Shown here one piece after another: positions 2,736 through 20,960 of a stretch of 64,000 bases of DNA. Position numbers and translations under genes: made by a program. Within the stretch, counting starts at the first letter, position 1; every line of letters begins with the position of its first letter. Below the pieces are notes generated by a model. It was not told where the DNA came from, did no database searches, and saw nothing but the letters and a program-made list of their open reading frames with translations. The DNA is from Solirubrobacteraceae bacterium (lineage in GTDB: Bacteria; Actinomycetota; Thermoleophilia; Solirubrobacterales; Solirubrobacteraceae), in contig DASUIH010000049.1 in the NCBI GenBank assembly GCA_036279855.1, forward strand, positions 11,517 to 75,516, in the 5' to 3' direction.

Positions 2736-2891
2736 CTACCGGCCGCTCCGCGTATCTGCTCGCTGGGAATCTTGCTGGCATGTCCGCTTAATCCGACCGT
2801 TGGCCGGAACCGGGACACAATCGCGAGAGCTCTTTTGCTCAATGAATACATCTGTACTCAGAATCCTCGCAGAGGCGGATGTCGGAACCTG

Positions 2892-3215
2892 TCAGCCAAC
2901 CCCCTCGGCGTAGGCGCGCATGGCCTCGATCACCGGCGCCAGCCTGCGCCCACGTGCCGTCAACCGGTACTCGACTGTTGGTGGGCTCGTGGGCAGCACG
3001 GTGCGTTCGATCAGGCCGGCGGCGTCCAGGTCACGCAGCCGCTCGGCGAGCATCCGTGGAGAGATGCCGTCGACCGCCTGGGCGAATTCGTTGAAGCGCA
3101 GCGCTCCGGTCAACGCCGCGTAGATAATCGACAGCTGCCAGCGGCGCTCAAGCAGCTCTGCCGCTTGGCGGACCTGCGCCGGCACCGGCTGGCATCTGCG
3201 TGGCTTGGCGGCCAT
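2892..3215 (-). CDS. HxlR-family winged-helix transcriptional regulator
   Basis: LRFNEF..ISPRMLAERLRDL..GLIER..PPTVEYRLT; start moved to ATG 3215 (GGAGAGGGAG upstream), which removes the overlap with lon. Confidence 0.88.
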   Translation of the reverse strand: MAAKPRRCQPVPAQVRQAAELLERRWQLSIIYAALTGALRFNEFAQAVDGISPRMLAERLRDLDAAGLIERTVLPTSPPTVEYRLTARGRRLAPVIEAMRAYAEGVG

Positions 3216-3243
3216 TTCCCGGTCTCCCTCTCCGGCGTCGCGT

Positions 3244-5601
<2,358 letters not shown>

Positions 5602-5647
5602 ATAAGCTTACGAAAGTGTAGTTAGTATAGCTCTCTACCGGAATCCT

Positions 5648-6559
5648 TCAAGGGGCTCCGAACAGCCGCCGCGGCCACAGCCGCCGTGCCCGCACGACAT
5701 TGACCTCGGCCGCGAACAGCAGCACTTGCCCCCCCAGGTACAGCCAGCTCAGCAGCCCCAGCACGATCGCGAAGAAGCCCGAGGTGTCCTTGGCATGACG
5801 AATCACGTGTTCGACATAGAGCCCGCCGACGTGTTGCAACAATTGCCACAGCAGTGCCGCCAGCACGATCCCTGGCAGCAGGTCGCTGGTGGCGATCTGC
5901 TCTGAGGTCATCAAACGAAAGACCGTGAAGAACAGCAGTAGGTTCGCGGCGAGCGCGATCGCGACGCCGACCAGGACCGCCGTCGCGCCGCGCGTCTGGC
6001 CGGTCGCGTAGCCGGCGGCGACTGTCGAGACGATGCTGAGGCTACCCAGGGCCACCAGCATCGCGAGCCCGCGCAGACGCCAGCCAAAGAAGCCGAAGCG
6101 CCTGCGCCTTGGAATCTGCCAGATCTTGTTGAAGGCGTTCTGTGTAGCGCCCGTGACCGCCAGTCCCGCCAGCAGCGATCCAACGATGCCAAGGACAAGT
6201 CCCACCAAGCTGCCTTTGAGCGAGCCGACGTTGCTGCGAATCTGCTCGCCGATCACCGGGATCTGGCTGAGAGTCGAGTGCAGCACGCTTTCCTGCGCTT
6301 TGGCGTCTCCTTGCAGCACGAAGCCAAGCACGGTCACGAACACGAGCAGCAGCGGGAACAGCGAGAAGAAGCCGTAGTAGGCGATCAGCGCGCCGAGCGA
6401 GCCGGCTTCGTCCTCGCCGTAGTGCTTGAGCACCGCCACCAGAAAGCCAAGTCGTGGCGAGCGCTGCTGGCGCTCGTCGAAGGCGCGCGGCAACGCGCGC
6501 ACACGCCGGCCGAACGAGACGCTTTGGGAGGGGGGTGTGTCCGCCACTCGCACCGACAT
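5648..6559 (-). CDS. YihY/virulence factor BrkB family membrane protein
   Basis: AYYGFFSLFPLL motif, multiple TM segments, LSWLYL near C-terminus; start set at ATG 6559. Confidence 0.9.
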   Translation of the reverse strand: MSVRVADTPPSQSVSFGRRVRALPRAFDERQQRSPRLGFLVAVLKHYGEDEAGSLGALIAYYGFFSLFPLLLVFVTVLGFVLQGDAKAQESVLHSTLSQIPVIGEQIRSNVGSLKGSLVGLVLGIVGSLLAGLAVTGATQNAFNKIWQIPRRRRFGFFGWRLRGLAMLVALGSLSIVSTVAAGYATGQTRGATAVLVGVAIALAANLLLFFTVFRLMTSEQIATSDLLPGIVLAALLWQLLQHVGGLYVEHVIRHAKDTSGFFAIVLGLLSWLYLGGQVLLFAAEVNVVRARRLWPRRLFGAP

Positions 6560-6646
6560 GCTCGCGTGTCTACCCGACGCCACAGCGCGCAACCGGCTGG
6601 TCGCACGCTTTTCGGTGCCACCGATCCGCAGGAAGCCGTAGCGCGC

Positions 6647-7243
6647 GTGGCTGCGACTCGACGCCGGCTACTGCTGGCGTCACACAGCCGCGACCTGAGC
6701 TGGGACGAGCTGGAGGACTGCTACAGCCAGGCGACGTTCGAGATGCTGATGCGCGCCAGGTCGCGCGGGCCGTTCCGCAGCGATGAGCACATCGCCCACG
6801 CGCTTGAGCAGCGGCTCTGCTCGCGAATCGACGATCGCCACCGGGCGCGCGGCGGTCGCAGCCCCGGCGCAGCCGCCTTGGCGCACGCGCTGCCACTGGC
6901 GCTGTGCGATCGAAATCGCGCCACTCGCGCCACCGTCGACGAGCGTGCCGACGTCGAGCGAATCGTGCTGCAGCGCGAGGAACTGGGCCGCATCGCCCGC
7001 TACTCGCGCCGGCTCACACAGGACCAACGACTGTTGCTTCACAGCCAGATTGGCGGCGAGCAGACACCTGCCGCGTTTTGCACCGAGCACAACTGGAGCC
7101 TTGAGAAGTACCGCAAGGTAGGTCAGCGCGCCCGCGCGCGGCTGCTCGGGCTGCTTAGCAGCGAATCGGTTGTCCCGGTTGTGCTCGCTCGTCGGATCAG
7201 TGGGCACGGACCCGCTTGTGAAGCCACCTCGCCCACCACATAA
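6647..7243 (+). CDS. Putative ECF-like sigma-70 factor heading the T4SS-like operon
   Basis: C-terminal part of ORF 6278..7243; region-2-like DELEDCYSQATFEML and region-4-like LTQDQRLLL..TPAAFCTEHNWSLEKYRKVGQRARARL; GTG 6647 is an inferred start. Confidence 0.6.
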   Translation: MAATRRRLLLASHSRDLSWDELEDCYSQATFEMLMRARSRGPFRSDEHIAHALEQRLCSRIDDRHRARGGRSPGAAALAHALPLALCDRNRATRATVDERADVERIVLQREELGRIARYSRRLTQDQRLLLHSQIGGEQTPAAFCTEHNWSLEKYRKVGQRARARLLGLLSSESVVPVVLARRISGHGPACEATSPTT

Positions 7244-7252
7244 GCGCGTCCG

Positions 7253-7366
7253 CCGAGACGCCTCAGACCGGCACGGCAAACGGTCATATGGCGTCTCGGG
7301 CACGCGCGCAAGCGACCGGGAGCGGGAACACTCCCCGTCCCGGCTCCCGGTCGCCCGCGCCTCGTG
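7253..7366 (+). repeat. Two tandem inverted repeats (stem-loops) between the sigma-like gene and the transfer operon
   Basis: CCGAGACGCC (7253-7262)/GGCGTCTCGG (7290-7299) perfect 10 bp; GCGACCGGGAGC (7312-7323)/GCTCCCGGTCGC (7343-7354) perfect 12 bp, extendable with bulges to about 7301-7366. Confidence 0.75.
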
Positions 7367-7378
7367 GCGGAGGCGGAG

Positions 7379-7879
7379 ATGACGTTGCTCAAACGTGAGC
7401 CGCGCTCTGTCTACCGGGTCTACGCCGACGATGAGTACCTCGACAGCGAGCAGCCTGAGACCACGGCGGACTCGCAATCGCCGGCACCTGAGTTCGAGCC
7501 AACCAGCAACCCGGCCGCGCAGAAGCGTCAGCGGCCCGCGGTCGCCCTGCTGGTCGGGGCGTTGATCGTGATGGTCATGCTGGCGGCGGTCGCGATCGTC
7601 ATCGACGTGGGTCACGGCACACGCGGCCGCGCGAGGCCAGCCGTAGCGGCCGGCCCGGCTCGGCAGGGGATGTCGAAGCGCCGCCAGCCGCGGCGGTTGC
7701 GTCCGTACCGAAGGCCTGTCCGTGCCAAGCAGCAAAAGCAGCCCAAGCAGGCCGACTTAGATCGCAAGGCAAGGCAACAGCCGGCATCGGCGCCTGTGCC
7801 GGCACCACCCGTCGTTTTTGCCGTTCCCCGGCTGCGGCTTGCGCCGGATGCCCAGGTCGAGTTCGGCTTTGAGCGGTGA
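7379..7879 (+). CDS. Hypothetical single-pass membrane protein, first gene of the transfer operon
   Basis: ATG after GGAGGCGGAG; one hydrophobic segment AVALLVGALIVMVMLAAVAIVI; basic Pro-rich tail. Confidence 0.6.
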   Translation: MTLLKREPRSVYRVYADDEYLDSEQPETTADSQSPAPEFEPTSNPAAQKRQRPAVALLVGALIVMVMLAAVAIVIDVGHGTRGRARPAVAAGPARQGMSKRRQPRRLRPYRRPVRAKQQKQPKQADLDRKARQQPASAPVPAPPVVFAVPRLRLAPDAQVEFGFER

Positions 7880-7885
7880 GCGCCG

Positions 7886-8746
7886 ATGCCCGCCGGCGAG
7901 CGCCCATTGGTAACCGTGACCGCGCGGACGCTTTGGCGTTTGCGCCTGCGCCAGGAAGCGCCGCGGCTGTTGCTGCAAGCGGCTGCTGTCTTTGGGCTGC
8001 TGGCAAGCGCTCGTTACGCGATCGATCCGCCCGTGCCAAGCGTGAGAGTCCCACAGCTCGGACCGGCGACGCAGCCGGATCGCGGTGCCGAAGCCTTCGC
8101 GGCGCTGTTCGCACGCCGTTATCTGAGCTGGGACGCCGAGGAACCGGAAATGCATCGGCGGGAACTTGCTCCTTATGTCGACCAGCAGATGGAAGCCGAA
8201 GCGGGATTCCAACCGCCGCAGGCAGGCTCGCAGCGAGTGCTGTGGACACAGGTGGTTCAGGCGAGCGCCGGCGCCGCCGGCGAGCGCTACACGGTCGCTG
8301 TGCAAACCGATGCGTCGGGCCTGCTGTATCTCGGCATCGGCGTGAGACGTCTTGCCGGAGGAGCGCTCGCGCTGAGCGGATACCCGGCGTTTGTCGGCCC
8401 GCCACCGATCGCCGCGGCAGCGCCGTTGCCGCCATCGAGAGAAGTGCAGGACGGGGCGCTCGTCACGGTGGCCACGCGGGCGCTTCGCAACTATCTCGCG
8501 GGACAGGCCTCCGAGCTCGCCGCCGACTTGGCGCCGGGAGTTCAGGTTTCTCCCCCCTCACCGTCGCTCACGCTGGAATCGCTGTACGCGCTGGAGTGGC
8601 TGCACGCCGGCAGCTCGCTGTACGCGCTCGTGCATGCCAACGACCGCGCAGGCGGCAGCTACGCGCTCGCCTATCGCCTGGGCCTGGCCGATGCCGCCGG
8701 CCGTTGGGAGATCACCGCGATCGAACTGGCCGGCGGGAGTGACTAG
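7886..8746 (+). CDS. Conjugal transfer protein, TcpC/VirB8-like
   Basis: N-terminal TM, then AFAALFARRYLSW followed by two repeated beta-rich NTF2-like halves; position in operon. Confidence 0.72.
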   Translation: MPAGERPLVTVTARTLWRLRLRQEAPRLLLQAAAVFGLLASARYAIDPPVPSVRVPQLGPATQPDRGAEAFAALFARRYLSWDAEEPEMHRRELAPYVDQQMEAEAGFQPPQAGSQRVLWTQVVQASAGAAGERYTVAVQTDASGLLYLGIGVRRLAGGALALSGYPAFVGPPPIAAAAPLPPSREVQDGALVTVATRALRNYLAGQASELAADLAPGVQVSPPSPSLTLESLYALEWLHAGSSLYALVHANDRAGGSYALAYRLGLADAAGRWEITAIELAGGSD

Positions 8747-8836
8747 CCGCGCTTGGCGATGGCTGCGCGGGCCGAGCCGAATTTCGCAAAAACGCACACC
8801 AACCCATCCCAAAAATCAAAAGCAAGGAGATACGAG

Positions 8837-9184
8837 ATGAACAGAAATCGACGGCACGGCCTGCTGGCGCTGACTGCGATTTTGGCACTGAGCGTGCCGG
8901 CATCCCCGTCGGCCTTGGCACAGGCAGCGCCGATCCCGCTTGCGGATACCGCCGGCGCGTCGTCGCTTGAATCGGCTGCGACCAAGGCCGGCGAAACGGG
9001 ACGCAGGGTTGCGATGAGCATGATCGCGCTCGGCTTCGCGATCGCCTCAGTCGTGCTTGCTTTCCGTCGCGACTTCAAGGAGGCAGCGGGCGTGTTCGCG
9101 ATCGGCATTGTCGCAATCCTGCTTGCCACTCCCGCCGGCGTAAACGTTCTGCACGACACCGTCAACACCCTGTTCGGGAGCTGA
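8837..9184 (+). CDS. Pilin-like (VirB2/TcpD-type) membrane protein
   Basis: AAGGAG RBS; signal peptide ending ALAQAA, then two hydrophobic helices separated by RRDFKE. Confidence 0.65.
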   Translation: MNRNRRHGLLALTAILALSVPASPSALAQAAPIPLADTAGASSLESAATKAGETGRRVAMSMIALGFAIASVVLAFRRDFKEAAGVFAIGIVAILLATPAGVNVLHDTVNTLFGS

Positions 9185-9187
9185 GCG

Positions 9188-9706
9188 GTGGTCGAGATTC
9201 GCTCGTTTCGCACCGTCTTTGACCTTGAGCGGCGTATCTATCGGGTCGATCGCCTGCGCCTGAACCCCGCCGGCGTGCCTGTGCGCGGCATCGTCTACTT
9301 CCTGGTGATCGCTGCCTGCTGCGAGCTGGCGGCGCGACTGCCGCTGCTCGGCGCTCTTGCGGCTGCGCCCCCGTGGTATCTGCGCGAGCTGGCGTTGCCT
9401 GGCGCGCTGGCAGCCCTGTTCTGCTTGATCGCGATCGAGGGTCGCCCGTTTCACCTGGCCGCGCTTGCCCTCATACGGTTCGCCTTGGCGCCGCGCGAGC
9501 TCTCGGCATTGCGTGCGCGGCGCGAGCACGACCGCCGTCTGCTGCCGGGCGAGCTGCTGGTGCTGGTGGACGGCTCGGAGTCGCGCCGGCGCCGTCTGCG
9601 CTACACGGGCCCCGGCGCTGTGCGCGTGTACGGTCCTGCGCCGCGCCGCGGCCGTGTGATCGAGTTGGAGCGCGGCGGGCGCTTCGAGGTGGCGGCACGG
9701 CCGTGA
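9188..9706 (+). CDS. TcpE-like (VirB3-type) conjugal transfer membrane protein
   Basis: IRSFRTVFDLERRIYRVD..L..P N-terminal motif, two TM segments, IEGRP; stop overlaps start of the ATPase gene. Confidence 0.7.
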   Translation: MVEIRSFRTVFDLERRIYRVDRLRLNPAGVPVRGIVYFLVIAACCELAARLPLLGALAAAPPWYLRELALPGALAALFCLIAIEGRPFHLAALALIRFALAPRELSALRARREHDRRLLPGELLVLVDGSESRRRRLRYTGPGAVRVYGPAPRRGRVIELERGGRFEVAARP

Positions 9707-11753
9707 CTTTGCCGATCTCCTTCGTCTACGGCAACTTGGTCTTCGCCCGTCGACTCGATGACGTCTGGGCAGCGTTCCGGCTGCCCTGCTCTTCCTATGC
9801 CTGGCTCTCCTCGGAGGCCAAGCGCTCACGCTTCGCTGCCCTGGCAGGCGCGCTGGCGGCGATCGAGTCTGACCTGCAGCTCGTGCGCGTCAGCCAAGCG
9901 TGGGACATAGAGCGCTATCTGCGTGAGGCCGCGGCCGGCCAGGGCAGTCGGTCGGGCGCTCGACATGACTATGTGCAGGCGCACTGCCAGCACCTGCGCG
10001 AGCGCCTACCGCATGAGCCGTCGCTGTACGCGTTCGTCTCGTTGCGTGAGCCCGAGCGCGACATCTCCTCGTATGTCTCGCGTGCCGCCGAGCAGCACCC
10101 GCGCGAGTGGCTGCGCTCGCTCTCACGGGCTTTGCGCGCGCGCGACCGCCGGCTGCTGCCGTCGGCCGAGCTGGAGGCGCTGCGGGTGCGGGCCGATCGC
10201 GTGCACGCGCGCCTGAGCGATTACCTGCCGGCCCGGCCGGCTCGCGGGATCGAGCTGCAGTGGCTGGTGCGCCGCTGTTTCTGCCGCGGTCTCGGCGAGC
10301 CGCCGCTCGACGGCCTGCACGAGCCACGCGCGCTTGCCTTTGAGTGCAACGGCGAAGCGTTGCTGGCGCCATTGGAGGCGGATGTGGTGCGTTGGGCCGA
10401 GAGCCTGGTCGAGCACCGTGGCCGTTTGCTGAGAGTCGAGTCCGAGCTGGGCCGCAGCCACCAGGCATTGCTCGTGCTCGGCGCGTTGCCTGAGCACGCG
10501 AACTTCCCCTCCGAGCGCGTCGAGCTGTTGTTCGCGCCGCTGGAAACGCTCCCATTCCCGGTAGACGCTTCGCTCAACGCTCGTTTCCTGCCCAACGAGC
10601 TGGCTTTGCGCATCGCCCGCCGCAGGGTGCAGGACGCCGACCAGATCCTCCGTGCGGAGTCCGACGGCGACCAGGGCGTCTCGGAGGTCGGCTACGAGCG
10701 CACGCTGCAGGCACGCGACCTGCTGGCCTACCTGCAGTCGGCCTCGCGCCCGCCGCTGCTGCGCGCGACGCTCTCGCTTGCGATCGGTGCAAGCGAGGAG
10801 GACGAGCTGTCCGAGCGGGTCGAGTCGTGCCGGCGCGCCTACGGCGAGATCCGCCTGCACCGTCCGCTGGGCGACCAGTTGGCTTTGTTCTGCCAGCACC
10901 TGCCGGGTCAGCGCACGGCTGTCGCCGGCTACGACGACACGCTCACGAGCGAGCAGGTTGCCGCGATGATGCCGACCGCGGCGCATACGGTTGGCTCAGA
11001 CTCTGGCTTTTACCTCGGCCACACGCTGTCGGGCAGTCGCCGACCGGTGCGCTTCAACCTGCGCGAGGGGTCTGAGCGCGACCGCAACACCGCGATCCTC
11101 TCGGTCGGCGCGCTCGGCTCGGGCAAGACGACGCTCGCGCAGAAGCTCCAGTACGAGGCGTTCCTGCAGGGCGCCCGAGTGGTCGACTGCGATCCCAAGG
11201 GCGACCACGCTTTTCACCTGCTTGAGCAAGTGGCTCCGCACGCGCAGACGATCGCGCTGCGCCCCGACCCGGAGCTGCGCGGCATGCTCGACCCGCTGCA
11301 AGTTGCCCCCGAGCACCTGCGTCAGGAGGCGGCCGTGTCGTTCCTACGCGACCTGCTGCCCGCTCGGGCGGAGGCGGCCTGGGAGACGGCTGTCGTTGGC
11401 GCCGTCGAGGCGGTCCTGTGTCGCGCTCGCGAGCCGACCTGCCTAGAGGTGGTGCGGGCTCTGCGCGAGGCCGACGGAGAGGGTGCTCAGGTCGGTGAGG
11501 CGCTGGCGGTGTACGCGCGCTCGGGCATGACACAGCTGGCTTTTGCCGAGGCCGGCGTCCGCCGCGCCCTCTCTGTCGGCGAGGCGCAGGTCAGCTATAT
11601 CGCGATCCGCGATCTGCCGGCCCCTGAGCCGGGCACGCGGCGCGACGAATACACCCAAGCCGAGCGTGTCGGAGTGCAAATGGTGCGGCTGATCGCGATG
11701 TTCGCGATGCACCTGTTGGCCAGCGAGCGCGAGCGCCTGAAGGTGTTCGTGTT
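9703..11753 (+). pseudogene. VirB4/TcpF-like conjugation ATPase, 5' segment, interrupted in the Walker B motif
   Basis: GTG 9703 overlapping upstream TGA; Walker A GALGSGKTT, CDPKGD; frame reads LKVFV then runs into element sequence (LDSVL*). Confidence 0.9.
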
Positions 11754-11770
11754 GGATAGCGTACTTTAGC
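11735..11770. other. attL junction of the serine-recombinase element (core TT at 11752-11753)
   Basis: virB4 sequence ..AAG GTG TTC GTG TT| switches to non-coding GGATAGCGTACTTTAGC. Confidence 0.8.
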
Positions 11771-11904
11771 GTTCACGCGCGCTTTCACATGCGCTGCCGC
11801 GAATTTTGCGCTTCACGAGAGCCTACTCGCGAGTGCCGACGAAGCCCCTTCCAAGTCTGGTCGTGGACCCCGCGTCTACGCGACTGCTCGCAGCTGGAGC
11901 GAGG

Positions 11905-12261
11905 TCAGCCAGCTGCTACGAGATCGGCGCCTTGCCCGTCTTCGGCAAGGTCGGTGATGTCGTCGGCAAAGCCGACAACGAGGTGCGTCTGCAGGGCGTC
12001 CGCGAGCCTGCGGAGCGTCTGCACGGTCGTGGGATGCTGACCGCTCTCGATGCGAGAGATCGCCGAATGGCTCGTACCCATGCGCTTGGCAAGCTCAGCT
12101 TGGCTTAGGCCAAGCTGGCCTCGTCTACGAATGACGATGCGCGCCAATGCCTCGTATGGAGCTAGCCGTTCGAACTCGGCGCGATAAACGGGGTTGTGCA
12201 TCCGCCTGCGTGTCGCCTCCGTGACGGATTCCCCGACGGGTGAGATGGTTCGTTCCTTCAT
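11905..12261 (-). CDS. XRE-family HTH antitoxin (HigA-like)
   Basis: GLSQAELAKRMGTSHSAISRIESG HTH; directly downstream of a RelE-like toxin. Confidence 0.85.
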   Translation of the reverse strand: MKERTISPVGESVTEATRRRMHNPVYRAEFERLAPYEALARIVIRRRGQLGLSQAELAKRMGTSHSAISRIESGQHPTTVQTLRRLADALQTHLVVGFADDITDLAEDGQGADLVAAG

Positions 12262-12273
12262 CGTGTGCTTACC

Positions 12274-12289
12274 TTACCAAAATCGGTAA
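12274..12289. promoter_or_regulatory. Palindromic operator candidate upstream of the antitoxin
   Basis: TTACC-N6-GGTAA in an AT-rich 35-bp gap; TAAGGT -10-like hexamer on the minus strand 9 nt before ATG. Confidence 0.45.
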
Positions 12290-12296
12290 AGGGAGT

Positions 12297-12692
12297 CTAG
12301 GGGGCATCGCTGCCGGCCGGCCTCGGAGGTACCCGTCGCCTGGCGTCCATCCGTGCCTTGAAGTCGCGCCAGCGGACCTTCGCAAGCTCGATCTCGGCGG
12401 CCGGGACCCGGCCGGTGTTCTTGCGGATCATGTGCAGCAGGACAAAGAGGTTCATCGATCTGCGGTAGAGCACTCGGTAGAGCACCGGCCCGTAGTGACA
12501 ACGTAGCTCGCGCAACTCTCCGTCTATCTGAGAGCTGGCCGGGAAGGGCAGAGGCGGATCGCGCGAGCTAAGGCCGTTCAAACGCCCGATCGCAAGATCG
12601 ATCGCCGCCTGATGCTTGGCAGGTAGGCCGGCGATGAATTCGTCGACGGGCTGCCGGCCACGCGCGTCGCGGTAGTAGACGGCTTGCGTCAT
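12297..12692 (-). CDS. RelE/ParE-superfamily toxin (HigB/Gp49-like)
   Basis: YYRDARGRQPVDEFI..IDGELRELR..YRVLY..FVLLHMIRKNT pattern; toxin-before-antitoxin order. Confidence 0.85.
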   Translation of the reverse strand: MTQAVYYRDARGRQPVDEFIAGLPAKHQAAIDLAIGRLNGLSSRDPPLPFPASSQIDGELRELRCHYGPVLYRVLYRRSMNLFVLLHMIRKNTGRVPAAEIELAKVRWRDFKARMDARRRVPPRPAGSDAP

Positions 12693-12889
12693 TGCTCGGC
12701 GAGCCAGTCCTCAAGCATCGCTTGCGTGAAGCGGATGTGACGGCCGACGCGCAAGCACGGAAGTCGTCCCGAACGGACGGCGTCGTAGATCCAGCTGGTC
12801 TTGACTGAGAGCAGCTGCGCGGCTTGCTCTGGTCGTAGCAGGGGGTCGGTGAGTTTGGGTCGGAGCGGGTCGTCTGTGGCTGGGTTCAC
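12689..12889 (-). CDS. Excisionase-family (HTH_17/AlpA-like) DNA-binding protein
   Basis: LLRPEQAAQLLSVKTSWIYDAVRSGRLPCLRVGRHIRF. Confidence 0.85.
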   Translation of the reverse strand: MNPATDDPLRPKLTDPLLRPEQAAQLLSVKTSWIYDAVRSGRLPCLRVGRHIRFTQAMLEDWLAEQ

Positions 12890-14456
12890 GGGTTGGCCTC
12901 CTGGGGGTGGAGCATGGTCGTGATCGTGGGTGGTTGCGCGCGGCCCGGTGTGATGAGAAGTGCTTGTCCGGTCACGAGTTGCTGGATGTTGCTGGGGTGG
13001 ATGCGGTAGTCGTAGTCGCGGCGGCGGTTGCCGCGGTCGGTAGCTCCGTAGCGCCCGAGTTGGTGGTCGGTCTGCTGGCTTGTCACCCAGACGGGTTGGT
13101 GGCTCGCGACCTTCGCGATCGTCTCGGCCGAGCTGGGCACGTTCTGGCGGTGAGCGATGACTGCTTGAACGTTGCCGAGGACCTGGTCGCGCAGGCTCGC
13201 GTCCGCCGCCTGCAGGTCGGCAAGCTCCTGCGTTGCCAGCAGCAGGCTGATCCCGGCCGAGCGGGCGCGCCCGAACAGTCGCGCGACGTGTCGCGCGGCG
13301 AGTGCGGAGAACTCGTCGATCAACACGACGGTCGGCGTCGGGTCGGCCTGCAGATGCGCGGCGAGCGTGACGAGGTCGCTGACCAGGGCAGCGGCGACCA
13401 TCTGCGCGAGCAGCGGTCGACGGTCGGCGTCGAGCGCGAAGTAGACGACCGCTCGCGAGCGGACCGCTTCGCGCAGGTCGATGCTCGGTGCCTGCGTTGG
13501 ATCGAACCAGCGACGGACGTCTGACTCCGCGAGGATCGATAGACGGTCGCGCACGCCGGCGAGGTCGCGGCGCTGGCGGTCGGTCAACGAGTCGAGGTAG
13601 TCGTTGATTGGCTCTGCGTGTTGCTCGTCCAGTGAGCGGGCGGTCACTTCGAGCTGATCGGGTCGCAGGTGCTTCATCAGCGCGGGCACGGTGACTGTGA
13701 CGTCGGCGGCGTGCATCGCCCTGACGGCATGACCGAGATAGCGTTGCGCCAATCGCAGGTAGTGCGGCTCAGTGAACACCTCGCCGGCGAGCGCCTTGTC
13801 GGCGATCTCGCTGTCGCTGCCGCTGGCGTAGGGGTTGTATGCGCAGGGACCGTTGGGAGTCCATTGCAGGAACTCGCGGTTGGCGGCGCCCGCCGCTCGC
13901 TGCAGCTCGCCGCGAAGCATCCTGTCGCCTTCGGGTCGATCGCGATCGCGCCGTGACCGGCTTCGATCATCCGCCCAGCGATCCAGGCCTCGCTGACGGT
14001 CTTGCCGGCGCCGGTTGCGCCCAGGACGAGCGCGTGCGACCCCGACGTCGTCTCGAACGGGATCGTGACCGGCAAACCTCGACTGTCGTGTCCAACGATC
14101 AACGAGCGATGGAGCAGCCATCCGTCGCGTCTGATGCGACGGTCCAGCCGACCGCGTTGGATCGCGTCTGTGATGCGCAGTCGGGCTTCTGCGGCTTGCG
14201 CCAGATCGCGGCCGGCGACCAGGTCGGCGGAGTGCCAGCGTGCGCCTAAAAGTGTCGCCCGAACGCTGACCCCTATGACTGTCGCCGCAAGCGAGATCGA
14301 GATCGGTCGAGCGAGGAGCGCCAACGGCAGGATCAAGAGGCTCCAGGTCCACATCAGCGAGCGGCGGCGTTGCCAGCGCGCGACGGTCAGTCCGCCCAGC
14401 AGGGTTAGCGCGACGAACAAAGCCAGCCCCTCTATGAAGTGTTCAGGCGAGTGCAT
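12886..14456 (-). pseudogene. Type IV coupling protein (TraD/VirD4-like), frameshifted
   Basis: N-terminal TMs and Walker A GATGAGKT in ORF 13677..14456; Walker B VLIDEF and GRARSAGISLLLATQ in ORF 12886..14352; frame change at IDPK/GD (AAGGCGAC lacks one G, about 13928-13929). Confidence 0.85.
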
Positions 14457-15144
14457 TGGGGGCCAGGTTCGAGAGGCTTTTGATGACCGAAGCGCTGTCG
14501 TTGAGATTGGCCACGGTGATGCGATCGGTGGCGTGGGTCGCGCGGATGGCGCGTTCGACGGCGCGTGCGGGTGCTGGCTCAGCCAGGTAGTAGATATGTG
14601 CGAGATGGCGGGCGCGGGCCCAGCCGCGACAGATCGCGACCAAACGGGCGGCTGACTTAACAGACAGCTCGATCTCGATCGCTACTACGCGCCCGTCTGG
14701 GGCCACCAGCGCCAGGTCGGGACGGTGCATCGCGGGCCGATCAGCGATCGCGCCGACCTTTGCCGAGGCGACGAGCTCTCCGCTGTCGAGCTCCTGCGCT
14801 CTGATCTCGCGCTCGCTCAGAAGTTGCCAGTCGGCCAGTCCGCCCTCAAGCGTCACCGCGGACGCAGCGGTCTGCTAGGCGTGCTCGAATCCACCTGGCG
14901 ATAGCGAGCAGCGCCCGAGGCGTTGGTTTCCTTGCCAGTGAAGGCCCGCGGCGGTGGCGAGATACATTCCGGGCCGTGCGTAGAGGATCGCGTGGCGATC
15001 GAGCAGGCCATCGCGGACGAGTGAGCCGAGGCGGTCATAGGCCACGGTGCGGCTCATCGCAAAGCTGTGCATCACATGCTCGGCGCCGGCGGCGCCCAGG
15101 CGCCCGATCCAGTCGACGATCTGTCCGTCCCTGTAGGTCTGCAC
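14443..15144 (-). pseudogene. Replication-relaxation (Replic_Relax-like) protein with in-frame TAG
   Basis: N-terminal wHTH ORF 14875..15144 and PD-(D/E)xK-type half (HRPDL..VAIEIELSVKS) are in one frame, separated by TAG at 14875-14877; family assignment is by pattern only. Confidence 0.65.
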
Positions 15145-15458
15145 AACAGCCTCCGATCTCGCAAGAAGATTCCGTTCGAAGGCTTAATCCGTCGAAATCA
15201 CGCAAACGGGACACGACACGAGAAAAAACGACGTTCCGCAGCTTTAGCGGAGAACCGGAGTAGCGCCACGCACGCCTAGATCACTGTCCCCAGGTGCGGC
15301 AGTTTCAGTCCCGTTGTGAGGAACTCGGAGCGCGAGGACGTTGGGATCGAGGCGGCGCTCATGTAGAGCAGCTGTCACAAACCCAAGGGCATGAGGTGTT
15401 GCGGCGATCGCGCCCTATGCCAACCACGCCACATCTTGCCGTCCAGGTGGGACTGGAA

Positions 15459-15636
15459 GGTTTTCGACCGTCGTGGCCCGAACCACAAAAGCTTCATCCT
15501 TAAACAGCAACACATGCGGGCCGCGACGGTCGAAAACCGATCCAGGCCGTTAGGCCTGGCGGTTTTACTCCGCTCCAGCGGATTCGATCACCGGGACGTA
15601 GTCCCGGCCCCAATCCACCCTATGCAGACGCTCTGC
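15459..15636. repeat. Cluster of five inverted repeats in the element's intergenic region
   Basis: 22-bp IR 15459-15480/15517-15538 (1 mismatch); hairpins 15542-15559, 15569-15582, 15591-15607, 15624-15636. Confidence 0.8.
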
Positions 15637-15776
15637 GTCCCGTTACATGTGCGGTCGTCGGAATAGGGATCATGGCCCAATCTCCTCCGGTGATGCCGCC
15701 GTTGGCGGTGCAAGCCGCTCTTGCGACATTTGCTCGTATCACGGCTGAACGCCAGCCAGGCGTAGTGCTTGTGCCG

Positions 15777-17210
15777 CTAGGAAGCGTAGGCACGGACGGG
15801 GCCGTTGTCTCTGCCTCGACGGGGCAAGTCGTCCGGCCCTTCGCCTCGCCAGAGGATCGTGACGCGATCCGTGATCGAGCTCTGGCCGTCGTCGCGTCTC
15901 ACGATCACGGCGTCGATCGAGCTGCCGATGATGCGCTTGCGGTCCTCGATCGGCAGCTCGTCGTAGCGAGCGATCGCGTCTGTGTCTAGCGCAGGTCCGC
16001 TGACTTGTTGCAGTTGTGCCTGCGCACGATTGACGGCGGTCGCGCGCGCCTCAAGCGCGGCGTGGTAGCCGCTTGCCAACAGCCGCCGGGCGGTGAGGTC
16101 TGAAGCAAACGCCCTCAGCTCATCTTCAGCTGCTTCGAGTTCGGCCGTAGCTGCCTTGAGCGCCTGCGAATCTTGCTTTATTGATAGCGCCTGCTCTGCC
16201 ATCTGCTCGCGCCAAACAGTCTCCACGTAACGCTCCACAGCTTCCCTTGAGATGCTCGCCGGCGCTGGACAGGAGCCGGCACTATGGACCTCACGACAGC
16301 GATAGACCCGCGTCGGGTTTGGTCTTCCCCCGCCATAGACCTGCGGCGCCAATACGTATCTGCAGGCGGCACAGCGGACGATGCCGCCGAGCAGGTTCGG
16401 ACGCTTCCCTCTATGAGACGAGCGCACGGGGGCGAGATTCGCAGCTTGCCACTCGGCAAAGGTCACGATCGCCTCGTGAGCATCCGGGTTGACGGTCTCG
16501 CCGCGATATGCCTCACCGAGGTAGACACGATTTTTGAGGATGCGCTCGACGCTTGAGGTAATCCAGCGACCCCCATTTGGGCGCTGAGCGATCTCGTCTA
16601 GCCTGCGCGCGATGTCCGTGCGTGTCTTATGGGCTCCCCGCATGAGAAAAATCTCGCGTACGGCCGGCGCGTCGGCATTGGGCACGAGGCGTTTGTCGGG
16701 AGCTCTGTCATAGCCAAAGGGCGTGAACTTGGTGATGTGAACGCCGCGGGCGATCGCGTTGTGTGTAGCCGTCCCCCAGTTCTCGGCGATGCGGTCGCGC
16801 TCAAGCTCCGCAAACACGAGCAGGATGCGGAGAAATGCCTTGCCCATCGGTGTCGAGAGGTCCAGGTTCTCGGCGACGCTCACAAGCACTGCGCCGTGGC
16901 GCCCGAACTCTTCAAGAGTGCTCAGCGCCCCGACTAGCGTCCGAGCGAAACGGTCTAGCTTGGCGACGATCACACCATCGCTCTGTCCGCTTCTGATTCG
17001 GCCCACGATCTGATCGAAGATCGGGCGGCTCATGCTGCCGCCGGAGACGTCGAGCTCCGGTGCGTGCCAAGTCAGCGAATGCCCATGAGCTTTCGCCCAT
17101 CGCTCGATCTGCTCGCGCTGGACCTCGGGCGAGATGAAGCTCGGTCCGCCACGCCCGCGCACCTGCGAGACGCGGACATAGGCATCGAGCCTCAGTCCGT
17201 TCGAAGTCAT
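15777..17210 (-). CDS. Large serine recombinase (integrase)
   Basis: YVRVS catalytic motif, SGGSMSRP, LDRFAR, recombinase domain (W..SSVERILKNRVYLG), Zn ribbon CAAC..C..C; ATG 17210 is 23 bp inside the right junction. Confidence 0.95.
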   Translation of the reverse strand: MTSNGLRLDAYVRVSQVRGRGGPSFISPEVQREQIERWAKAHGHSLTWHAPELDVSGGSMSRPIFDQIVGRIRSGQSDGVIVAKLDRFARTLVGALSTLEEFGRHGAVLVSVAENLDLSTPMGKAFLRILLVFAELERDRIAENWGTATHNAIARGVHITKFTPFGYDRAPDKRLVPNADAPAVREIFLMRGAHKTRTDIARRLDEIAQRPNGGRWITSSVERILKNRVYLGEAYRGETVNPDAHEAIVTFAEWQAANLAPVRSSHRGKRPNLLGGIVRCAACRYVLAPQVYGGGRPNPTRVYRCREVHSAGSCPAPASISREAVERYVETVWREQMAEQALSIKQDSQALKAATAELEAAEDELRAFASDLTARRLLASGYHAALEARATAVNRAQAQLQQVSGPALDTDAIARYDELPIEDRKRIIGSSIDAVIVRRDDGQSSITDRVTILWRGEGPDDLPRRGRDNGPVRAYAS

Positions 17211-17216
17211 GGGTTT

Positions 17217-17252
17217 GCAATTTAGCATTGTTATTCGACGAGGGATGGAGGC
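17217..17252. other. attR junction of the serine-recombinase element (core TT at 17234-17235)
   Basis: ..TTTAGCATTGTTA|TT C GAC GAG GGA TGG resumes the virB4 frame (FDEGW). Confidence 0.8.
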
Positions 17253-17620
17253 TTCTAGGCGATCCGGTCGGTCGCTCGCTGTTGGCCTCGCTGCAGCGAA
17301 TGGGCCGATCTGAGCTGGCCGTGCCGATCGTCTGCACGCAGCTGGTCACCGACGCGCTGCTCGGCGAGCGCGAGTCGCTTGAGAACCTGCTGGGGGCGAC
17401 ATTCGTGTTCGGCATGCGCTCGGAGGCCGAGGCGGCACGTGCCCTGTCGTTGCTTGGGCTCGACCCTGACGATCGGCATGCGCGCGAGCGCCTGCTGGAA
17501 ATGGACTCGGGGCGCTGTCTGTTCCGAGACCACAGCGGACGCGTCGAGGCGATCCAGGTTGAGCTTGTCGCGCCGGCGCTGTTGCGGGCGTTCTCGACGA
17601 TGCCGGCACCGGCGGCATGA
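17236..17620 (+). pseudogene. VirB4/TcpF-like ATPase, 3' segment
   Basis: FDEGWRLL..LQRMGRSELAVPIVCTQ..SGRCLFRDHSGRV, the C-terminal motifs absent from the 5' segment; its TGA overlaps the next ATG. Confidence 0.9.
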
Positions 17621-19839
17621 GCCGAACGCCTACGACGGCGAGGGTCGCGGTTCTTGGCATGCTGCTGCTCGCGGGGAGCGGGAGCGTGCCCGGGTCGGCC
17701 TACGCGGTCGCCGCGCGCTCTTCACCCCGCCATCGGGCTCCCACTCGTGCCCCGTCCGGGCCACCGCTCGTCGGCACCGGTGCGGCGGCGGGCGAAGAAA
17801 CCGAGCAGACCGTCGGCATCGAATCCGTCGCCGGCGACCAGTTGGTTGAAAATGGCCTGTCCAGCCCGCTCTGCAAAGGCGCGGTGGCCGCGTCCCTGTC
17901 GAGCGCCTCGCGCTCGGATTGCGCAAGCTCAGGGTTCGTCGGCGCGGCTGCGCCGTCCAACAACTACGCGCTTGACGTTCACATCGACACGGGCGCGTTC
18001 GGTCTGAGCAAGGGGGGCCTGCTCTCGGTCGTGCAGGACATTTTCATAGCTCCGGCGTGGGGAGCGCTTGAGTGGCTGGCGCACGCACTCGTGGTGATGC
18101 TCGAATGGTGCTACACGCTGGAACTGCTGGGCGGCGCCGGCACGAGCACCGTGGCGCATGCGCTGCTACAGGCACGGGCGGGCTTTACCGAACCGTGGCT
18201 GGCCCTGGTGTTGGCGCTCGCTTCATTGCTCGCCCTCTACCACGGCCTGGTGCAGCGCCGCGTGGCCGACACGCTCGGCGGCGCGCTGACGATGCTGGCG
18301 ATGATGGCGGGCGGCCTGTGGGTGATCGCCGACCCGGGCGGCACTGTCGGCGCGGTCGGTGGCTGGGCCAACCAGGCAAGCCTTGGCACGCTCGCCGCGA
18401 GTGCCAGCGGATCGCCGGGCGGCGGGGCGGCAACGCTCGCCGACGGCATGCGCGCGCTGTACACGGCCGCGATCGAAACACCCTGGTGCTACCTGGAGTT
18501 CGGCAACGTGCGTTGGTGCAGCGACCCCTCGCGGCTAGATCCGCGGCTGCGCGCGGTTGCGTTGGCCCTGGCAGCCGGCGGCAAACAGGACGTCGCAGTG
18601 CCGGCGCAAGCCGCCGAGCTGGCGCGTGTCGCGAGCACCAATGGCGCGCTGTTCCTGGCTTTTCCCGCCAATGGCCCACAGCGCAACTCGATCAATCAGC
18701 GCAGCTCGTTGTTGCGCGCCATCTGTCGCAGCCAAGAAGCCACCAAATGCACGGGCTCCGCGGCGCCCGAGGCCGAGTTTCGGACCGACGGCGGCACCTT
18801 CCCGCGCCTGCTCGGGCTGCTTGCGATCGCCGTCGGCGTGCTTGGCATGGCGCTGCTGTTCGGCCTGCTTGCACTGCACCTGCTGGCGGCGGCCTTCGTC
18901 GGCCTGTTCCTGTTGCTGCTGGCGCCGCTGGCGGTGCTGGCGCCGGCCTTTGGCGATGGTGGCCGGGCGTTGTTCACGGCCTGGTTGACGCGGCTGCTGG
19001 CAGCCTTCAGCTCCAAGCTGCTGTTCTCGTTCGTGCTGGGTGCGTCGCTGACGATGCAGCGGGCGCTGGCTGCGCTGGACACGCTCGGCTGGTGGACACA
19101 GTGGCTGCTCACCTGTGGCTTTTGGTGGACGCTGTTCGTCAAGCGCCACGAGCTGGCGGCGATGGCGCGGAGCGCCGGACGGCAAGGCGGGTCGTCGCGT
19201 TCTGCCGGACAACGCGACGGCAGCACGCACGTGTCTCCGGCTGGTATCGGCGCCGGCGGCCGACCGGGCGGTGGTGGCGGTGTCCGCCCGCTGCCGTTGC
19301 TGCGCCGAGCAGAGAACGCATTGCAGACATACGGCGTGGTGCGTCACCCAGCCAGGTGGGCCGAGGCTCAGATCGGCGCGCGGATCGCCCAGCGCCAGCC
19401 GCGAGAGGAGCGCCCGGCGCCCGGCCGGCAAAAGCAGCAGCAGCCGGCGGTTGCTGGGCGCCGTTTGCGCGAGCGCGCGTCACATCTGCTGCATGCTCGC
19501 GATCGCCGCTTGTCGCAAAGCGCCCGGCCGGCGGAGCCTACTGAGCCCTGGGTCGATCGGACCCGGGCGGCTGGCGCTGCTCACCGATCTTTGCAACAGC
19601 CGCGGCAGCAGTCACAGCCCTCCGAGCAGCCGCAGCAACAACTGTTGCCGTCGTCGGTCTCGGATCGGCGTGGTGGCGTAGCGGCGCCGGCTAGTAGCGC
19701 ACCGCTCTCTCCACCTCGCCGCGAGCAGCTCAAGCCTCCTGCGCCTGCCCTCCGCGAAGAGCGCTCACCGGTGATGGAAGACGCGTTTGCTGTGGCACGC
19801 GGGCGCAAGCGCCAGCTCGGCTACGACTCCGAGCAGTGA
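17617..19839 (+). CDS. Polytopic conjugation membrane protein (VirB6/TcpH-like)
   Basis: Signal-like N-terminus, several TM clusters, low-complexity Arg/Gln/Pro tail; ATGA coupling to virB4. Confidence 0.7.
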   Translation: MSRTPTTARVAVLGMLLLAGSGSVPGSAYAVAARSSPRHRAPTRAPSGPPLVGTGAAAGEETEQTVGIESVAGDQLVENGLSSPLCKGAVAASLSSASRSDCASSGFVGAAAPSNNYALDVHIDTGAFGLSKGGLLSVVQDIFIAPAWGALEWLAHALVVMLEWCYTLELLGGAGTSTVAHALLQARAGFTEPWLALVLALASLLALYHGLVQRRVADTLGGALTMLAMMAGGLWVIADPGGTVGAVGGWANQASLGTLAASASGSPGGGAATLADGMRALYTAAIETPWCYLEFGNVRWCSDPSRLDPRLRAVALALAAGGKQDVAVPAQAAELARVASTNGALFLAFPANGPQRNSINQRSSLLRAICRSQEATKCTGSAAPEAEFRTDGGTFPRLLGLLAIAVGVLGMALLFGLLALHLLAAAFVGLFLLLLAPLAVLAPAFGDGGRALFTAWLTRLLAAFSSKLLFSFVLGASLTMQRALAALDTLGWWTQWLLTCGFWWTLFVKRHELAAMARSAGRQGGSSRSAGQRDGSTHVSPAGIGAGGRPGGGGGVRPLPLLRRAENALQTYGVVRHPARWAEAQIGARIAQRQPREERPAPGRQKQQQPAVAGRRLRERASHLLHARDRRLSQSARPAEPTEPWVDRTRAAGAAHRSLQQPRQQSQPSEQPQQQLLPSSVSDRRGGVAAPASSAPLSPPRREQLKPPAPALREERSPVMEDAFAVARGRKRQLGYDSEQ

Positions 19840-20951
19840 GGGCCGGCGCGATCCCGGTTCGAGCAGGCACCAAAGCGGTCGTGGCTGCCGTCTTTGTCGT
19901 GACGGCCTTTTGCGTTGCCCTGCTGATGCTTGTCGCCGCCCTGGCGGGTGCCGGCACAGCTTCGACCGTTCAGGCCGGCGGCCTTGGCGTCTCCGCGCGA
20001 GCGCGCGCCGACATTCCGCCGCGCTATCTGGCGCTTTATCGCAGTGCCGCAGCGCGCTATGGCCTGGATTGGGCGATCCTTGCTGGGATCGGCAAGGTCG
20101 AGTGCGATCACGGCCGCGACCCCGATCCGTCGTGTACGCGTGAGGGAGCGGTCAACTCGGCCGGCGCTGGTGGCCCAATGCAGTTCCTGGCGGCGACATT
20201 CAGCGAGTACGGAGTCGCCCCGCAAGGGGGCAGGCCGGATCGTTGGGATGCCGCGGACGCGATCTACTCGGCGGCCAACTACCTGCGAGCAGCCGGCGCG
20301 CCTGGTGACTACCACCGGGCGATCTTCGCCTATAACCACGCTGACTGGTACGTAGCCGAGGTCGAGCGTTGGGCCACGCTTTACCGTGGCCCGGCACTGG
20401 CGGTGGAGACGCTGGCCGGCGAAGCCGAAAACGGGGTGGAGCAATGGCCCGGCGTCGGGCCGGTCCGCTACGTCGCCGGCGTCCGAGCACGCCTTGCGCC
20501 GGGCGACGGCCACGTGGCACTGGTCCCGTCGGCTGCGCCGGCAGCCGTCCAGGCGATGGTGATCGCCGGCAACGAGCTGCAGACGCTGCCATACGGGCCG
20601 ACGGGCCATCCCGACCCGCGTGGCGCCGACAGCGAGGACTGCTCAAGCACCGTCAACTACGTGCTCTATCGCTCAGGAGTGCGTCCGATCGATGAAATCG
20701 TGCGCGAGAACCCGCTGGCACAGGACTACGTCGACTGGGGTGAGCCAGGGCCCGGGCGCTGGGTGACGATCTACGCCACGACCGCGCCCACCGACCACGT
20801 CTTCATCGTGATCGCCGGGCTGCGCCTGGACACCTCGCACGATGGCACCGACGTGGGTCCCAACCGCGATCAGGACGGGCCACGCTGGCGCGTCCTCGAC
20901 CGCATCCCGACCTGGGCGCACTGGTCGGCCCGCCACCCGCCCGGGTTGTAA
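19836..20951 (+). CDS. Bifunctional cell-wall hydrolase (lytic transglycosylase plus NlpC/P60-like domain), VirB1-like
   Basis: YGLDWAILAGIGKVE, GPMQF, AANYL, AIFAYNH; C-terminal DCSS...HV. Confidence 0.85.
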   Translation: MRAGAIPVRAGTKAVVAAVFVVTAFCVALLMLVAALAGAGTASTVQAGGLGVSARARADIPPRYLALYRSAAARYGLDWAILAGIGKVECDHGRDPDPSCTREGAVNSAGAGGPMQFLAATFSEYGVAPQGGRPDRWDAADAIYSAANYLRAAGAPGDYHRAIFAYNHADWYVAEVERWATLYRGPALAVETLAGEAENGVEQWPGVGPVRYVAGVRARLAPGDGHVALVPSAAPAAVQAMVIAGNELQTLPYGPTGHPDPRGADSEDCSSTVNYVLYRSGVRPIDEIVRENPLAQDYVDWGEPGPGRWVTIYATTAPTDHVFIVIAGLRLDTSHDGTDVGPNRDQDGPRWRVLDRIPTWAHWSARHPPGL

Positions 20952-20960
20952 GGTGGCGTT

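Follow-up and report, generated by a model that had tools for sequence, protein, structure and literature searches.

A predicted integrative mobilizable element interrupts a core chromosomal virB4 gene within its Walker B codons in Solirubrobacteraceae

INTRODUCTION

In Firmicutes, integrative mobilizable elements (IMEs) with serine integrases sit in traG (VirD4), maff2 or snf2 of Tn5252-superfamily ICEs (integrative conjugative elements) (Coluzzi et al. 2017, PMC5357655; Guedon et al. 2017, PMC5704250), with IME_Sco1050_traG_site1/2, Tn6104 and IMESp2907 as named examples (PMC5357655; PMC5704250). It has already been proposed that excision of such an IME restores the conjugation gene and that the IME then rides the repaired machine (PMC5357655). 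Members of one streptococcal class, IME_Class_8, encode a relaxase (MobC/PF13814) and a VirD4 coupling protein alongside their serine integrase (PMC5357655). Here, we analyzed a stretch of 64,000 nucleotides (hereafter the window; contig DASUIH010000049.1, positions 11,517 to 75,516, assembly GCA_036279855.1) from a Solirubrobacteraceae bacterium, in which a virB4 gene, encoding the ATPase of a type IV secretion system (T4SS)-like locus, is interrupted by an element with a large serine recombinase (LSR). We regard it as probable that the insert belongs to an IME family with a fixed site in the Walker B codons of VirB4, and that this copy is old and partly decayed.

As in the Firmicute ICEs, a small serine-integrase element disrupts a conserved conjugation gene and is flanked by very short repeats, several sites and integrase lineages are found per target gene, and toxin-antitoxin genes occur as cargo. 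However, the target here is the Walker B codons of VirB4 and not traG (VirD4), maff2 or snf2, the host belongs to the Actinomycetota (Thermoleophilia), and the interrupted gene is a core, syntenic chromosomal gene found in approximately 95% of the genus and not part of an ICE; moreover, a sister integrase clade targets a core coupling-protein/relaxase fusion gene. With IME_Class_8 the element shares the three signature functions and a compact order of coupling protein, relaxase, excisionase-like gene and integrase, but the proteins are only remotely similar, with a sub-threshold MobC match, the smaller related loci L039 and L040 are without a coupling protein, and both mobilization genes are broken in the present copy.

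Serine-recombinase elements that interrupt a coding sequence, and whose exact excision would rebuild it, also include skin in sigK of B. subtilis (SpoIVCA), the comK prophage of Listeria ("active lysogeny") and the fdxN element of Anabaena (XisF). Those are either fixed elements or prophages linked to a programme of the host, whereas the family described here occupies few species, carries variable cargo and moves horizontally. The integrase itself resembles those of phiC31, Bxb1, A118/LI and TP901-1 in its Resolvase-Recombinase-zinc ribbon architecture, its 2-bp core (TT), and its nonidentical attP and attB sites with imperfect dyad symmetry; unlike these phage-type LSRs, it resides on a predicted mobilizable element and its P arm overlaps the integrase start codon.

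RESULTS

virB4 is split at a TT dinucleotide within the Walker B codons

The features that define the split gene are as follows.

9703..11753, plus strand: VirB4/TcpF-like ATPase, N-terminal part; 683.7 codons, Walker A motif GALGSGKT; Pfam AAA_10, 85.3 bits, profile positions 18-247
11724..11783: attL; B arm, TT core at 11752-11753, then P' arm GGATAGCGTACTTTAGCG
11754..17235, minus strand: integrated element; 5,482 bp with one TT copy counted; G+C 0.645; single copy in the genome
17205..17265: attR; P arm GGGTTTGCAATTTAGCATTGTTA, TT core at 17234-17235, then B' arm CGACGAGGGATGG
17236..17620, plus strand: VirB4, C-terminal part; 127 codons, opening with the last base of the Phe codon followed by DEGW; AAA_10, 79.1 bits, profile positions 245-362

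A first-pass annotation, made from the sequence of the window alone, had placed a cut in virB4 at TT within KVFVF|DEGW and had claimed that removal of 11754-17235 restores the gene. Both sequence and translation confirmed this. The left junction at 11753|11754 reads AAGGTGTTCGTGTT|GGATAGCG (wider context ...CTGAAGGTGTTCGTGTT|GGATAGCGTACTTTAGCG) and the right junction at 17235|17236 reads CATTGTTATT|CGACGAGGGATGG (wider context ...TTTAGCATTGTTATT|CGACGAGGGATGG), with TT as the sole sequence common to the two, again as annotated. Joining 9703-11753 to 17236-17620 gave a 2,436-nt open reading frame (ORF) of 811 aa, reading ...KVFVFDEGW... (ERERLKVFVFDEGWRLLGDP), whose TGA stop overlaps the ATG of the following gene at 17617. 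The crossover thus falls between the second and third base of a Phe codon, in the Walker B strand hhhF|DEGW, and the two VirB4 halves abut, since the N-terminal part matched AAA_10 profile positions 18-247 and the C-terminal part positions 245-362. In the integrated state, the N-terminal frame extends 4 codons into the element and ends at TAG 11767-11769. VirB4 is thereby cut short at residue 685, followed by the 4 foreign codons, and its final 127 codons are detached.

The rebuilt protein was next compared with uninterrupted homologues. In a DNA alignment, 11 uninterrupted same-genus orthologues were gapless across the junction, reading K(I/L/V)F(S/G/V)FDEGW, and homologues are therefore colinear over KVFVFDEGW. 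The joined VirB4 showed 65-86% identity to uninterrupted genus orthologues, with residues ~2-810 covered, and its VFVFDEGW aligned with VLVVDEAW of the VirB4 C-terminal domain structure PDB 4AG5. With the AAA_10 match, the GSGKT motif, the rebuilt VFVFDE and T4SS neighbors (TcpC-like, VirB6-like and SLT genes), the target was assigned to the VirB4/TcpF (AAA_10) T4SS ATPases. No second VirB4 was found in this assembly.

The attachment sites carry a stop codon for VirB4 and the start codon of the integrase

Joining 11753 to 17236 predicts attB as ...GTGTTCGTGTTCGACGAGG..., and joining 17235 to 11754 predicts attP as ...AGCATTGTTATTGGATAGCG.... In related elements (described below), the P arm GCAwTwTAGCrTTsnyA-TT was kept in 6/6 and the P' arm motif TTTAGC, at +12 to +17, in 4/4. 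The latter yields an in-frame TAG five codons past the crossover in all four attL sites (11754-11769 in the window, L039, L040 and L041), and because the P' arm itself supplies this stop, the truncated VirB4 ends cleanly, always after 4 foreign residues. The first-pass annotation had also pointed to a GC at positions 16-17 of all half-sites. This held in the window and in all six P arms and four P' arms, but in only three of four B arms and three of four B' arms; given these counts, a role of GC as a recognition motif is plausible for attP and weak for attB.

Only 7 bp separate the crossover from the LSR start codon (25 bp with M7 as the start), which falls within the P arm; this arm (17205-17235) overlaps the first six integrase codons, MLNCKP. 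With a start so close to the crossover, expression of int in the integrated state would require a promoter within the host DNA, antisense to virB4. In an excised circle, transcription of the minus-strand operon, which finishes at the left end, would continue across attP into int, which would favor integrase expression after excision or upon entry into a new cell. Such junction-dependent int expression is possible from the layout of the sites.

The insert has the gene content of an IME

The following features were identified inside the element.

11905..12261, minus strand: Xre/HTH_3 antitoxin-like gene; 118 aa; Pfam HTH_3, 58 bits; PHROG transcriptional regulators
12297..12692, minus strand: Gp49/HigB-like toxin gene; 131 aa; PF05973 Gp49, 44.6 bits
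12689..12889, minus strand: excisionase-family HTH_17 gene; 66 aa; HTH_17, 53.2 bits; TIGR01764 "excise", 46.9 bits, above the cut-off of 28.8
12886..14456, minus strand: VirD4/TraD-type coupling-protein gene, broken; Pfam TraG-D_C and TrwB_AAD_bind; TIGR03743, 58.8 bits, sub-threshold
14443..15144, minus strand: MobC/Replic_Relax-like gene, broken; winged helix-turn-helix and PD-(D/E)xK-like HRPDL...EIELS.KS
15459-15480 / 15517-15538: candidate oriT inverted repeat; 22-nt arms, 36-nt loop
15542-15559: terminator-like hairpin after the candidate oriT repeat
15777..17228, minus strand: LSR; 483 aa, intact; YVRVS catalytic motif; alternative start M7 at 17210

The insert has a G+C content of 63-65%, compared to ~70% for the flanks, and all its recognizable genes lie on the minus strand, antisense to the virB4 operon, in agreement with the first-pass annotation. 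The LSR contains the domains Resolvase (PF00239, 98.9 bits), Recombinase (PF07508, 49.9 bits) and Zn_ribbon_recom (PF13408, 35.6 bits), all above their cut-offs, and the 2-bp core without long direct repeats, typical of this class, was found in the window, L039, L040 and L041. The coupling-protein homologue of L044 (529 aa) has transmembrane segments and the motifs GATGSGKT, IDPKGD and VLIDEF. An intact L039 orthologue of the MobC-like protein, which has a winged helix at its N-terminus and the HRPDL...EIELS.KS motif, matched PF13814 at 13.2 bits (E=0.095; cut-off 25.3) and NF041423 at 27.8 bits (E=1.4e-6; cut-off 200). Both matches span most of the profiles, but they are sub-threshold and leave the protein outside the MobC/Replic_Relax (PF13814) relaxase family; the sequence thus suggests at best a remote MobC/Replic_Relax relative. 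A 137-aa ORF had no Pfam match alone and was recognized as the C-terminal part of the split gene through intact orthologues. In both L039 and L040, the inverted repeat is conserved together with ~165 nt around it, at ~300 bp upstream of the gene for the MobC-like protein, which makes it the best oriT candidate.

Together, the LSR, the MobC-like and TraD-like genes (both pseudogenes here), the oriT-like repeat, the att boundaries and the lack of mating-pore or other T4SS genes identify the insert, by predicted gene content, as an IME. The HTH_3 and Gp49/HigB-like genes are predicted to form a HigBA-type toxin-antitoxin pair. The HTH_17 gene overlaps its neighboring genes by 4 nt, and, as a possible recombination directionality factor, its product is a weak candidate. 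A firm call of this protein as the directionality factor of the family was rejected, as tblastn gave no match in L039, L040 or L041. In L043 and L044, HTH_17 is found alongside the coupling-protein gene; it does not accompany the VirB4-targeting LSRs, and since it travels with the coupling-protein module and not with the LSR, its role is uncertain. A sigma-70 scan of the element, with a model that is uninformative for this phylum, returned no promoter-like sites.

The same TT recurs as a landing site across the genus

Relatives of the LSR were sought in a scan with one genome per species, and the attR pattern (P arm plus B' arm) was surveyed in 401 genomes of this Solirubrobacteraceae genus, 165 of which are of high quality. 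Nine LSR relatives (67-85% identity) were found, all in Solirubrobacterales or Solirubrobacteraceae metagenome-assembled genomes (MAGs). For five of these (L039, L040, L041, L045 and L047; 70-85% identity), 8-25 bp separate the LSR from a C-terminal fragment of VirB4, and in related elements whose flank reaches the N-terminal fragment, this is located 4.0-7.0 kb away. Every attL and attR pair of the related elements uses the same TT. The attR pattern matched 28 of the 401 genomes and 12 of the 165 high-quality ones (0 matches for the reversed control), corresponding to occupancy of the VirB4 TT site in ~7% of species by orthologous LSRs of 66-85% identity, and the LSR/VirB4_C arrangement was present in 12/12 attR-pattern loci inspected. 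In most of the 401 genomes, the gene was uninterrupted and colinear.

These data also bear on whether the junctions in the window could result from an assembly or binning chimera, given that the genome is a 2.85 Mb MAG in 49 contigs. An independent 15.1-kb Logan contig (run SRR25158402) is 100% identical to window 6336-21435, including both junctions as well as the TAG and the frameshift described below for the mobilization genes; the attR architecture of the 28 genomes is present in closed chromosomes too, five JGI metagenome contigs have the same attR junction, and there are four full attL/attR pairs with the same TT. A chimeric origin, which the first-pass annotation had raised as a concern, is by this independent assembly and recurrence effectively refuted.

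The family ranges in size from 4 to >9 kb and its cargo varies. L039 and L040 carry essentially no more than an LSR, an oriT-like repeat and a MobC-like gene, and lack a coupling protein; L041 and L045 have a different coupling protein and a different MobC-like gene; and L047 carries a PIN-domain protein and an HTH_17-like protein. The latter two (1249-2342 of the L047 element, occ orientation), a PIN-domain protein and a protein with a C-terminal HTH_17-type domain, were judged by eye from their sequences. If they constitute a toxin-antitoxin pair, such modules would recur as cargo of this IME family.

At the same TT in genome G001, we found a second, unrelated LSR of 617 aa, with 27% identity over 277 residues to the LSR of the window. 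Sequence comparison indicates that its specificity is either convergent or very anciently shared. Together with the 28 occupied genomes, it substantiates the first-pass suggestion that the conserved motif provides a stable target. A universally conserved motif such as Walker B can thus offer integrases a landing pad that spans species, and two unrelated ones use it here. The finding is of relevance for how integrases choose targets that are "written in protein code", and for mining site-specific integrases with natural attB/attP pairs. The ORF of the G001 LSR (L037, G001:C376, 6557-8410; junction near 8252) crosses the junction ~52 codons into antisense host DNA, and the integrated and excised forms would thus encode different C-termini.

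Other VirB4 arrangements were also noted in the genus. In L038 (G024:C1:2852500-2872400; 1478-17656), a 16-kb island interrupts virB4 near residues 229-249 and encodes DarT, an ADP-ribosylglycohydrolase (DarG-like), a UvrD-like helicase and DUF6414, with no recombinase among the ORFs of ≥200 aa. In many genus genomes, the best VirB4 E-values are near 1e-290, which may reflect an L038-type split. A second VirB4 paralogue, 36-41% identical, is present in many genus genomes (e.g., G009:C7:1365437-1367841 and G021:C2:1745707-1748105), frequently encoded by a pair of neighboring ORFs (residues ~1-403 and 404-808), and presumably resides on ICEs or plasmids.

The element family appears to spread horizontally

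The window and L039 share 85% identity in the LSR and 71% in VirB4_N, and L041 and L047 share 83% in the LSR and 73-74% in host genes. For the latter pair, the synonymous divergence (dS) was 0.57 for the LSR versus 1.0-1.3 for host genes. The topology of the LSR tree conflicts with the host tree, the VirB4 tree requires at least 3 gains or losses for the four fully resolved occupied genomes, and the closest relatives of this genome (G601, G493, G591 and G461) have empty sites. Phylogeny and divergence thus indicate that the family spreads horizontally and is not ancestral.

By the same data we assessed a domesticated host developmental switch that would time the T4SS after losing its mobility, comparable to skin/sigK and the cyanobacterial nifD, fdxN and hupL elements. 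The loss of the mobilization genes with retention of the recombinase does resemble the decayed skin element, and the best NCBIfam match of the LSR is XisF, although at 90 bits this is far under the cut-off. Such a switch is nevertheless very improbable: the insert is found in only ~7% of species (28/401 genomes), its cargo differs among species, the LSR and host trees disagree, the four closest relatives are empty, and VirB4 is accelerating and not conserved in this lineage. The first-pass comparison to a skin/sigK-like fixed host switch therefore failed on occupancy, variable cargo and horizontal movement.

This copy is probably a long-resident knockout

Both mobilization genes of the present copy are disrupted. 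The coupling-protein gene has a 1-nt deletion at ~13928-13935 (AAG-GGC read as AAGGC, missing G), and the 529-aa L044 homologue aligns first with frame -2 (aa 7-192) and then with frame -1 (aa 181-528) of the window. At 14875-14877, the MobC-like gene reads TAG in frame, against TGG (Trp) in relatives. Its two ORFs (14875-15144 and 14443-14856) correspond in alignments to aa 1-89 and 97-218, respectively, of intact 254-310-aa proteins (L039, L040 and L047). Exact-protein look-ups with orfC, SLT, LSR and HTH_3 matched only the one Logan contig, and no presence/absence polymorphism was visible among the matches.

Since dS was near saturation (0.5-1.6), the ratio of nonsynonymous to synonymous divergence (dN/dS) is unsuited to judging long-term function, and we used relative-rate tests instead. 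In VirB4_N, the window has 46-59 lineage-specific residue changes, whereas G601, G493 and G591, sisters with an empty site, have 17-35 (p = 0.017 to 6e-5); Lon, SLT, PyrRedox, VirB6-like and orfC were mostly symmetric. The VirB4 end branch is 0.23 for the window versus 0.05-0.10 for the sisters; the corresponding branch of the occupied L041 is 0.071, versus 0.081 for its empty sister. The LSR of the window was not accelerated compared to those of L039 and L040. Given the broken mobilization genes and a VirB4 that evolves 2 to 3 times faster, this copy is probably a long-resident knockout, which would have lost mobilizability and kept its integrase and addiction module while VirB4 drifts.

An alternative, which corresponds to the switch of the first-pass annotation, is a working excision-gated lock: a signal would still trigger excision, virB4 would be rebuilt, and only cells without the element would run the T4SS. 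The intact LSR, evolving at the normal rate of the family, and the excisionase-family gene would fit this, as would the VirB4 fragments, which are both open in all 17+ occupied loci seen, with a dN/dS of 0.02-0.29 among occupied genomes and no acceleration of the L041 VirB4 over its empty sister; furthermore, the hypothesis has been published for analogous IMEs (PMC5357655). However, with both mobilization genes broken, excision would not lead to transfer, the VirB4_N of the window is 2 to 3 times faster than in its sisters, excision products were found neither in the assembly nor in JGI metagenome contigs, and, with the LSR start 7 bp from the crossover, the integrated element has no space for an int promoter of its own. 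We consider a working lock in this copy unlikely.

Consequences of integration and excision

In the reading we prefer, that of an old and partly decayed IME, integration would abolish VirB4 activity and would probably be polar on the downstream VirB6-like and hydrolase genes, and LSR-mediated recombination of attL with attR would rebuild virB4 exactly. The family probably rides the host T4SS, because its members carry an oriT-like hairpin, a MobC-like gene and sometimes a coupling protein but no mating-pore genes; mobilization in trans is suggested by the horizontal spread of the family. Excision would then both release the element and repair the motor needed for transfer. This copy is most likely held by addiction through its intact toxin-antitoxin pair, and the T4SS ATPase would have been off for a long time. 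Of the switch proposed in the first-pass annotation, the precise serine-recombinase element in Walker B, whose exact excision would rebuild the gene, was retained, but no excision product was found and the copy is decayed.

Several observations weigh against parts of this interpretation. The MobC/Replic_Relax, TraD and TcpF assignments are all sub-threshold by curated cut-offs, and full-length VirB4 is not a TcpF equivalog, as it scored 129 bits with that NCBIfam model (cut-off 1100). Neither attB nor attP, with up to 3 mismatches allowed, was found in the genome's own assembly. The family-wide attP pattern had 0 matches in JGI metagenome contigs, a negative that is weak because the attR control gave only 5. 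The 1-nt deletion in the coupling-protein gene lies within a G run and could in principle be a sequencing error shared by both assemblies. Most substitutions private to this VirB4 at otherwise invariant positions are conservative and neither fragment has acquired a stop, so that relaxed constraint on VirB4 is suggestive and unproven. Finally, the host owns a core coupling-protein/MobC-like fusion gene, which makes it uncertain whether serving the elements is the purpose of the T4SS.

A broader proposal, that the IMEs are reversible locks on a core DNA-transfer system (the TcpC/VirB4/VirB6/hydrolase operon plus a 1,184-aa fusion protein), whose two motor ATPase genes would be dedicated landing sites for sister clades of these IMEs, with the T4SS of a cell ON only when its IME is excised and ready for transfer, is tentative and in our view rather unlikely. 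If true, T4SS activity would be a population-level, recombinase-controlled phase variation. Active excision would also provide a testable model of recombinase-gated T4SS control and a handle on the role of this orphan core T4SS.

The interrupted operon is part of the core chromosome

The operon genes on either side of virB4 are listed below.

7244-7879, plus strand: orfA; host T4SS-like operon, upstream
7886-8746, plus strand: orfB; weakly TcpC/VirB8-like, 286 aa; weak PF12642 TpcC match in precomputed annotation
8837-9184, plus strand: 115-aa ORF; upstream operon gene
9188-9706, plus strand: orfC; upstream operon gene
17617-19839, plus strand: VirB6-like membrane protein gene; 740 aa; NF046089 CD3337/EF1877 domain, 32.8 bits, sub-threshold
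19836-20951, plus strand: SLT-domain cell-wall hydrolase gene; Pfam SLT_2 and SLT

A Pfam search gave no match for three of the upstream ORFs (7244..9706), and the downstream genes (17617..20951) have 4-nt gene overlaps. Uninterrupted VirB4 orthologues were present in 156/165 high-quality genus genomes (~95% of the genus), and the order MFS-Lon-BrkB-[orfA, TcpC-like, orfC, VirB4, VirB6-like, SLT]-PyrRedox was observed in every same-genus genome examined. The VirB4 target is thus part of a vertically inherited, core chromosomal T4SS-like operon and not on an ICE. This extends the theme of a parasite inside the conjugation machine from Firmicute ICEs to uncultured, abundant soil actinobacteria in which the machine is encoded by the core chromosome.

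A sister LSR clade targets a second motor gene

In the LSR tree, a clade with 100/99 support comprised two VirB4-targeting subclades and two subclades found in another gene, and the LSR clade predicts the target gene. This other target is a fusion gene (C26:44494-48048, 1,184 aa), intact in the present genome, that encodes N-terminal transmembrane segments, a coupling-protein-like ATPase and a C-terminal MobC-like domain. It was found in 55/59 high-quality genus genomes and is split near residue 460 in at least 4 of 61 genomes. With both the fusion gene and virB4 hit, the two motor-type ATPase genes of the core conjugation-like system are each integrase targets. The sister-clade loci are L042-L044, L046 and L033, and an extra split of the fusion gene, near residue 522-527, was seen in G283.

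Contig C26 also carries, at 52109-54429, an intact second coupling protein (537 aa, 53% identity to that of the element) and a MobC-like protein (247 aa). With this pair and the intact fusion gene on C26, the strict idea that the element supplies exactly what the host lacks was rejected. The pair lies 4 kb from the fusion gene and may be another integrated element. Two more LSRs are encoded in the same genome, at C36:1742-3166 (42% identity to the LSR of the window; near a contig end) and C21:89004-90482 (33%).

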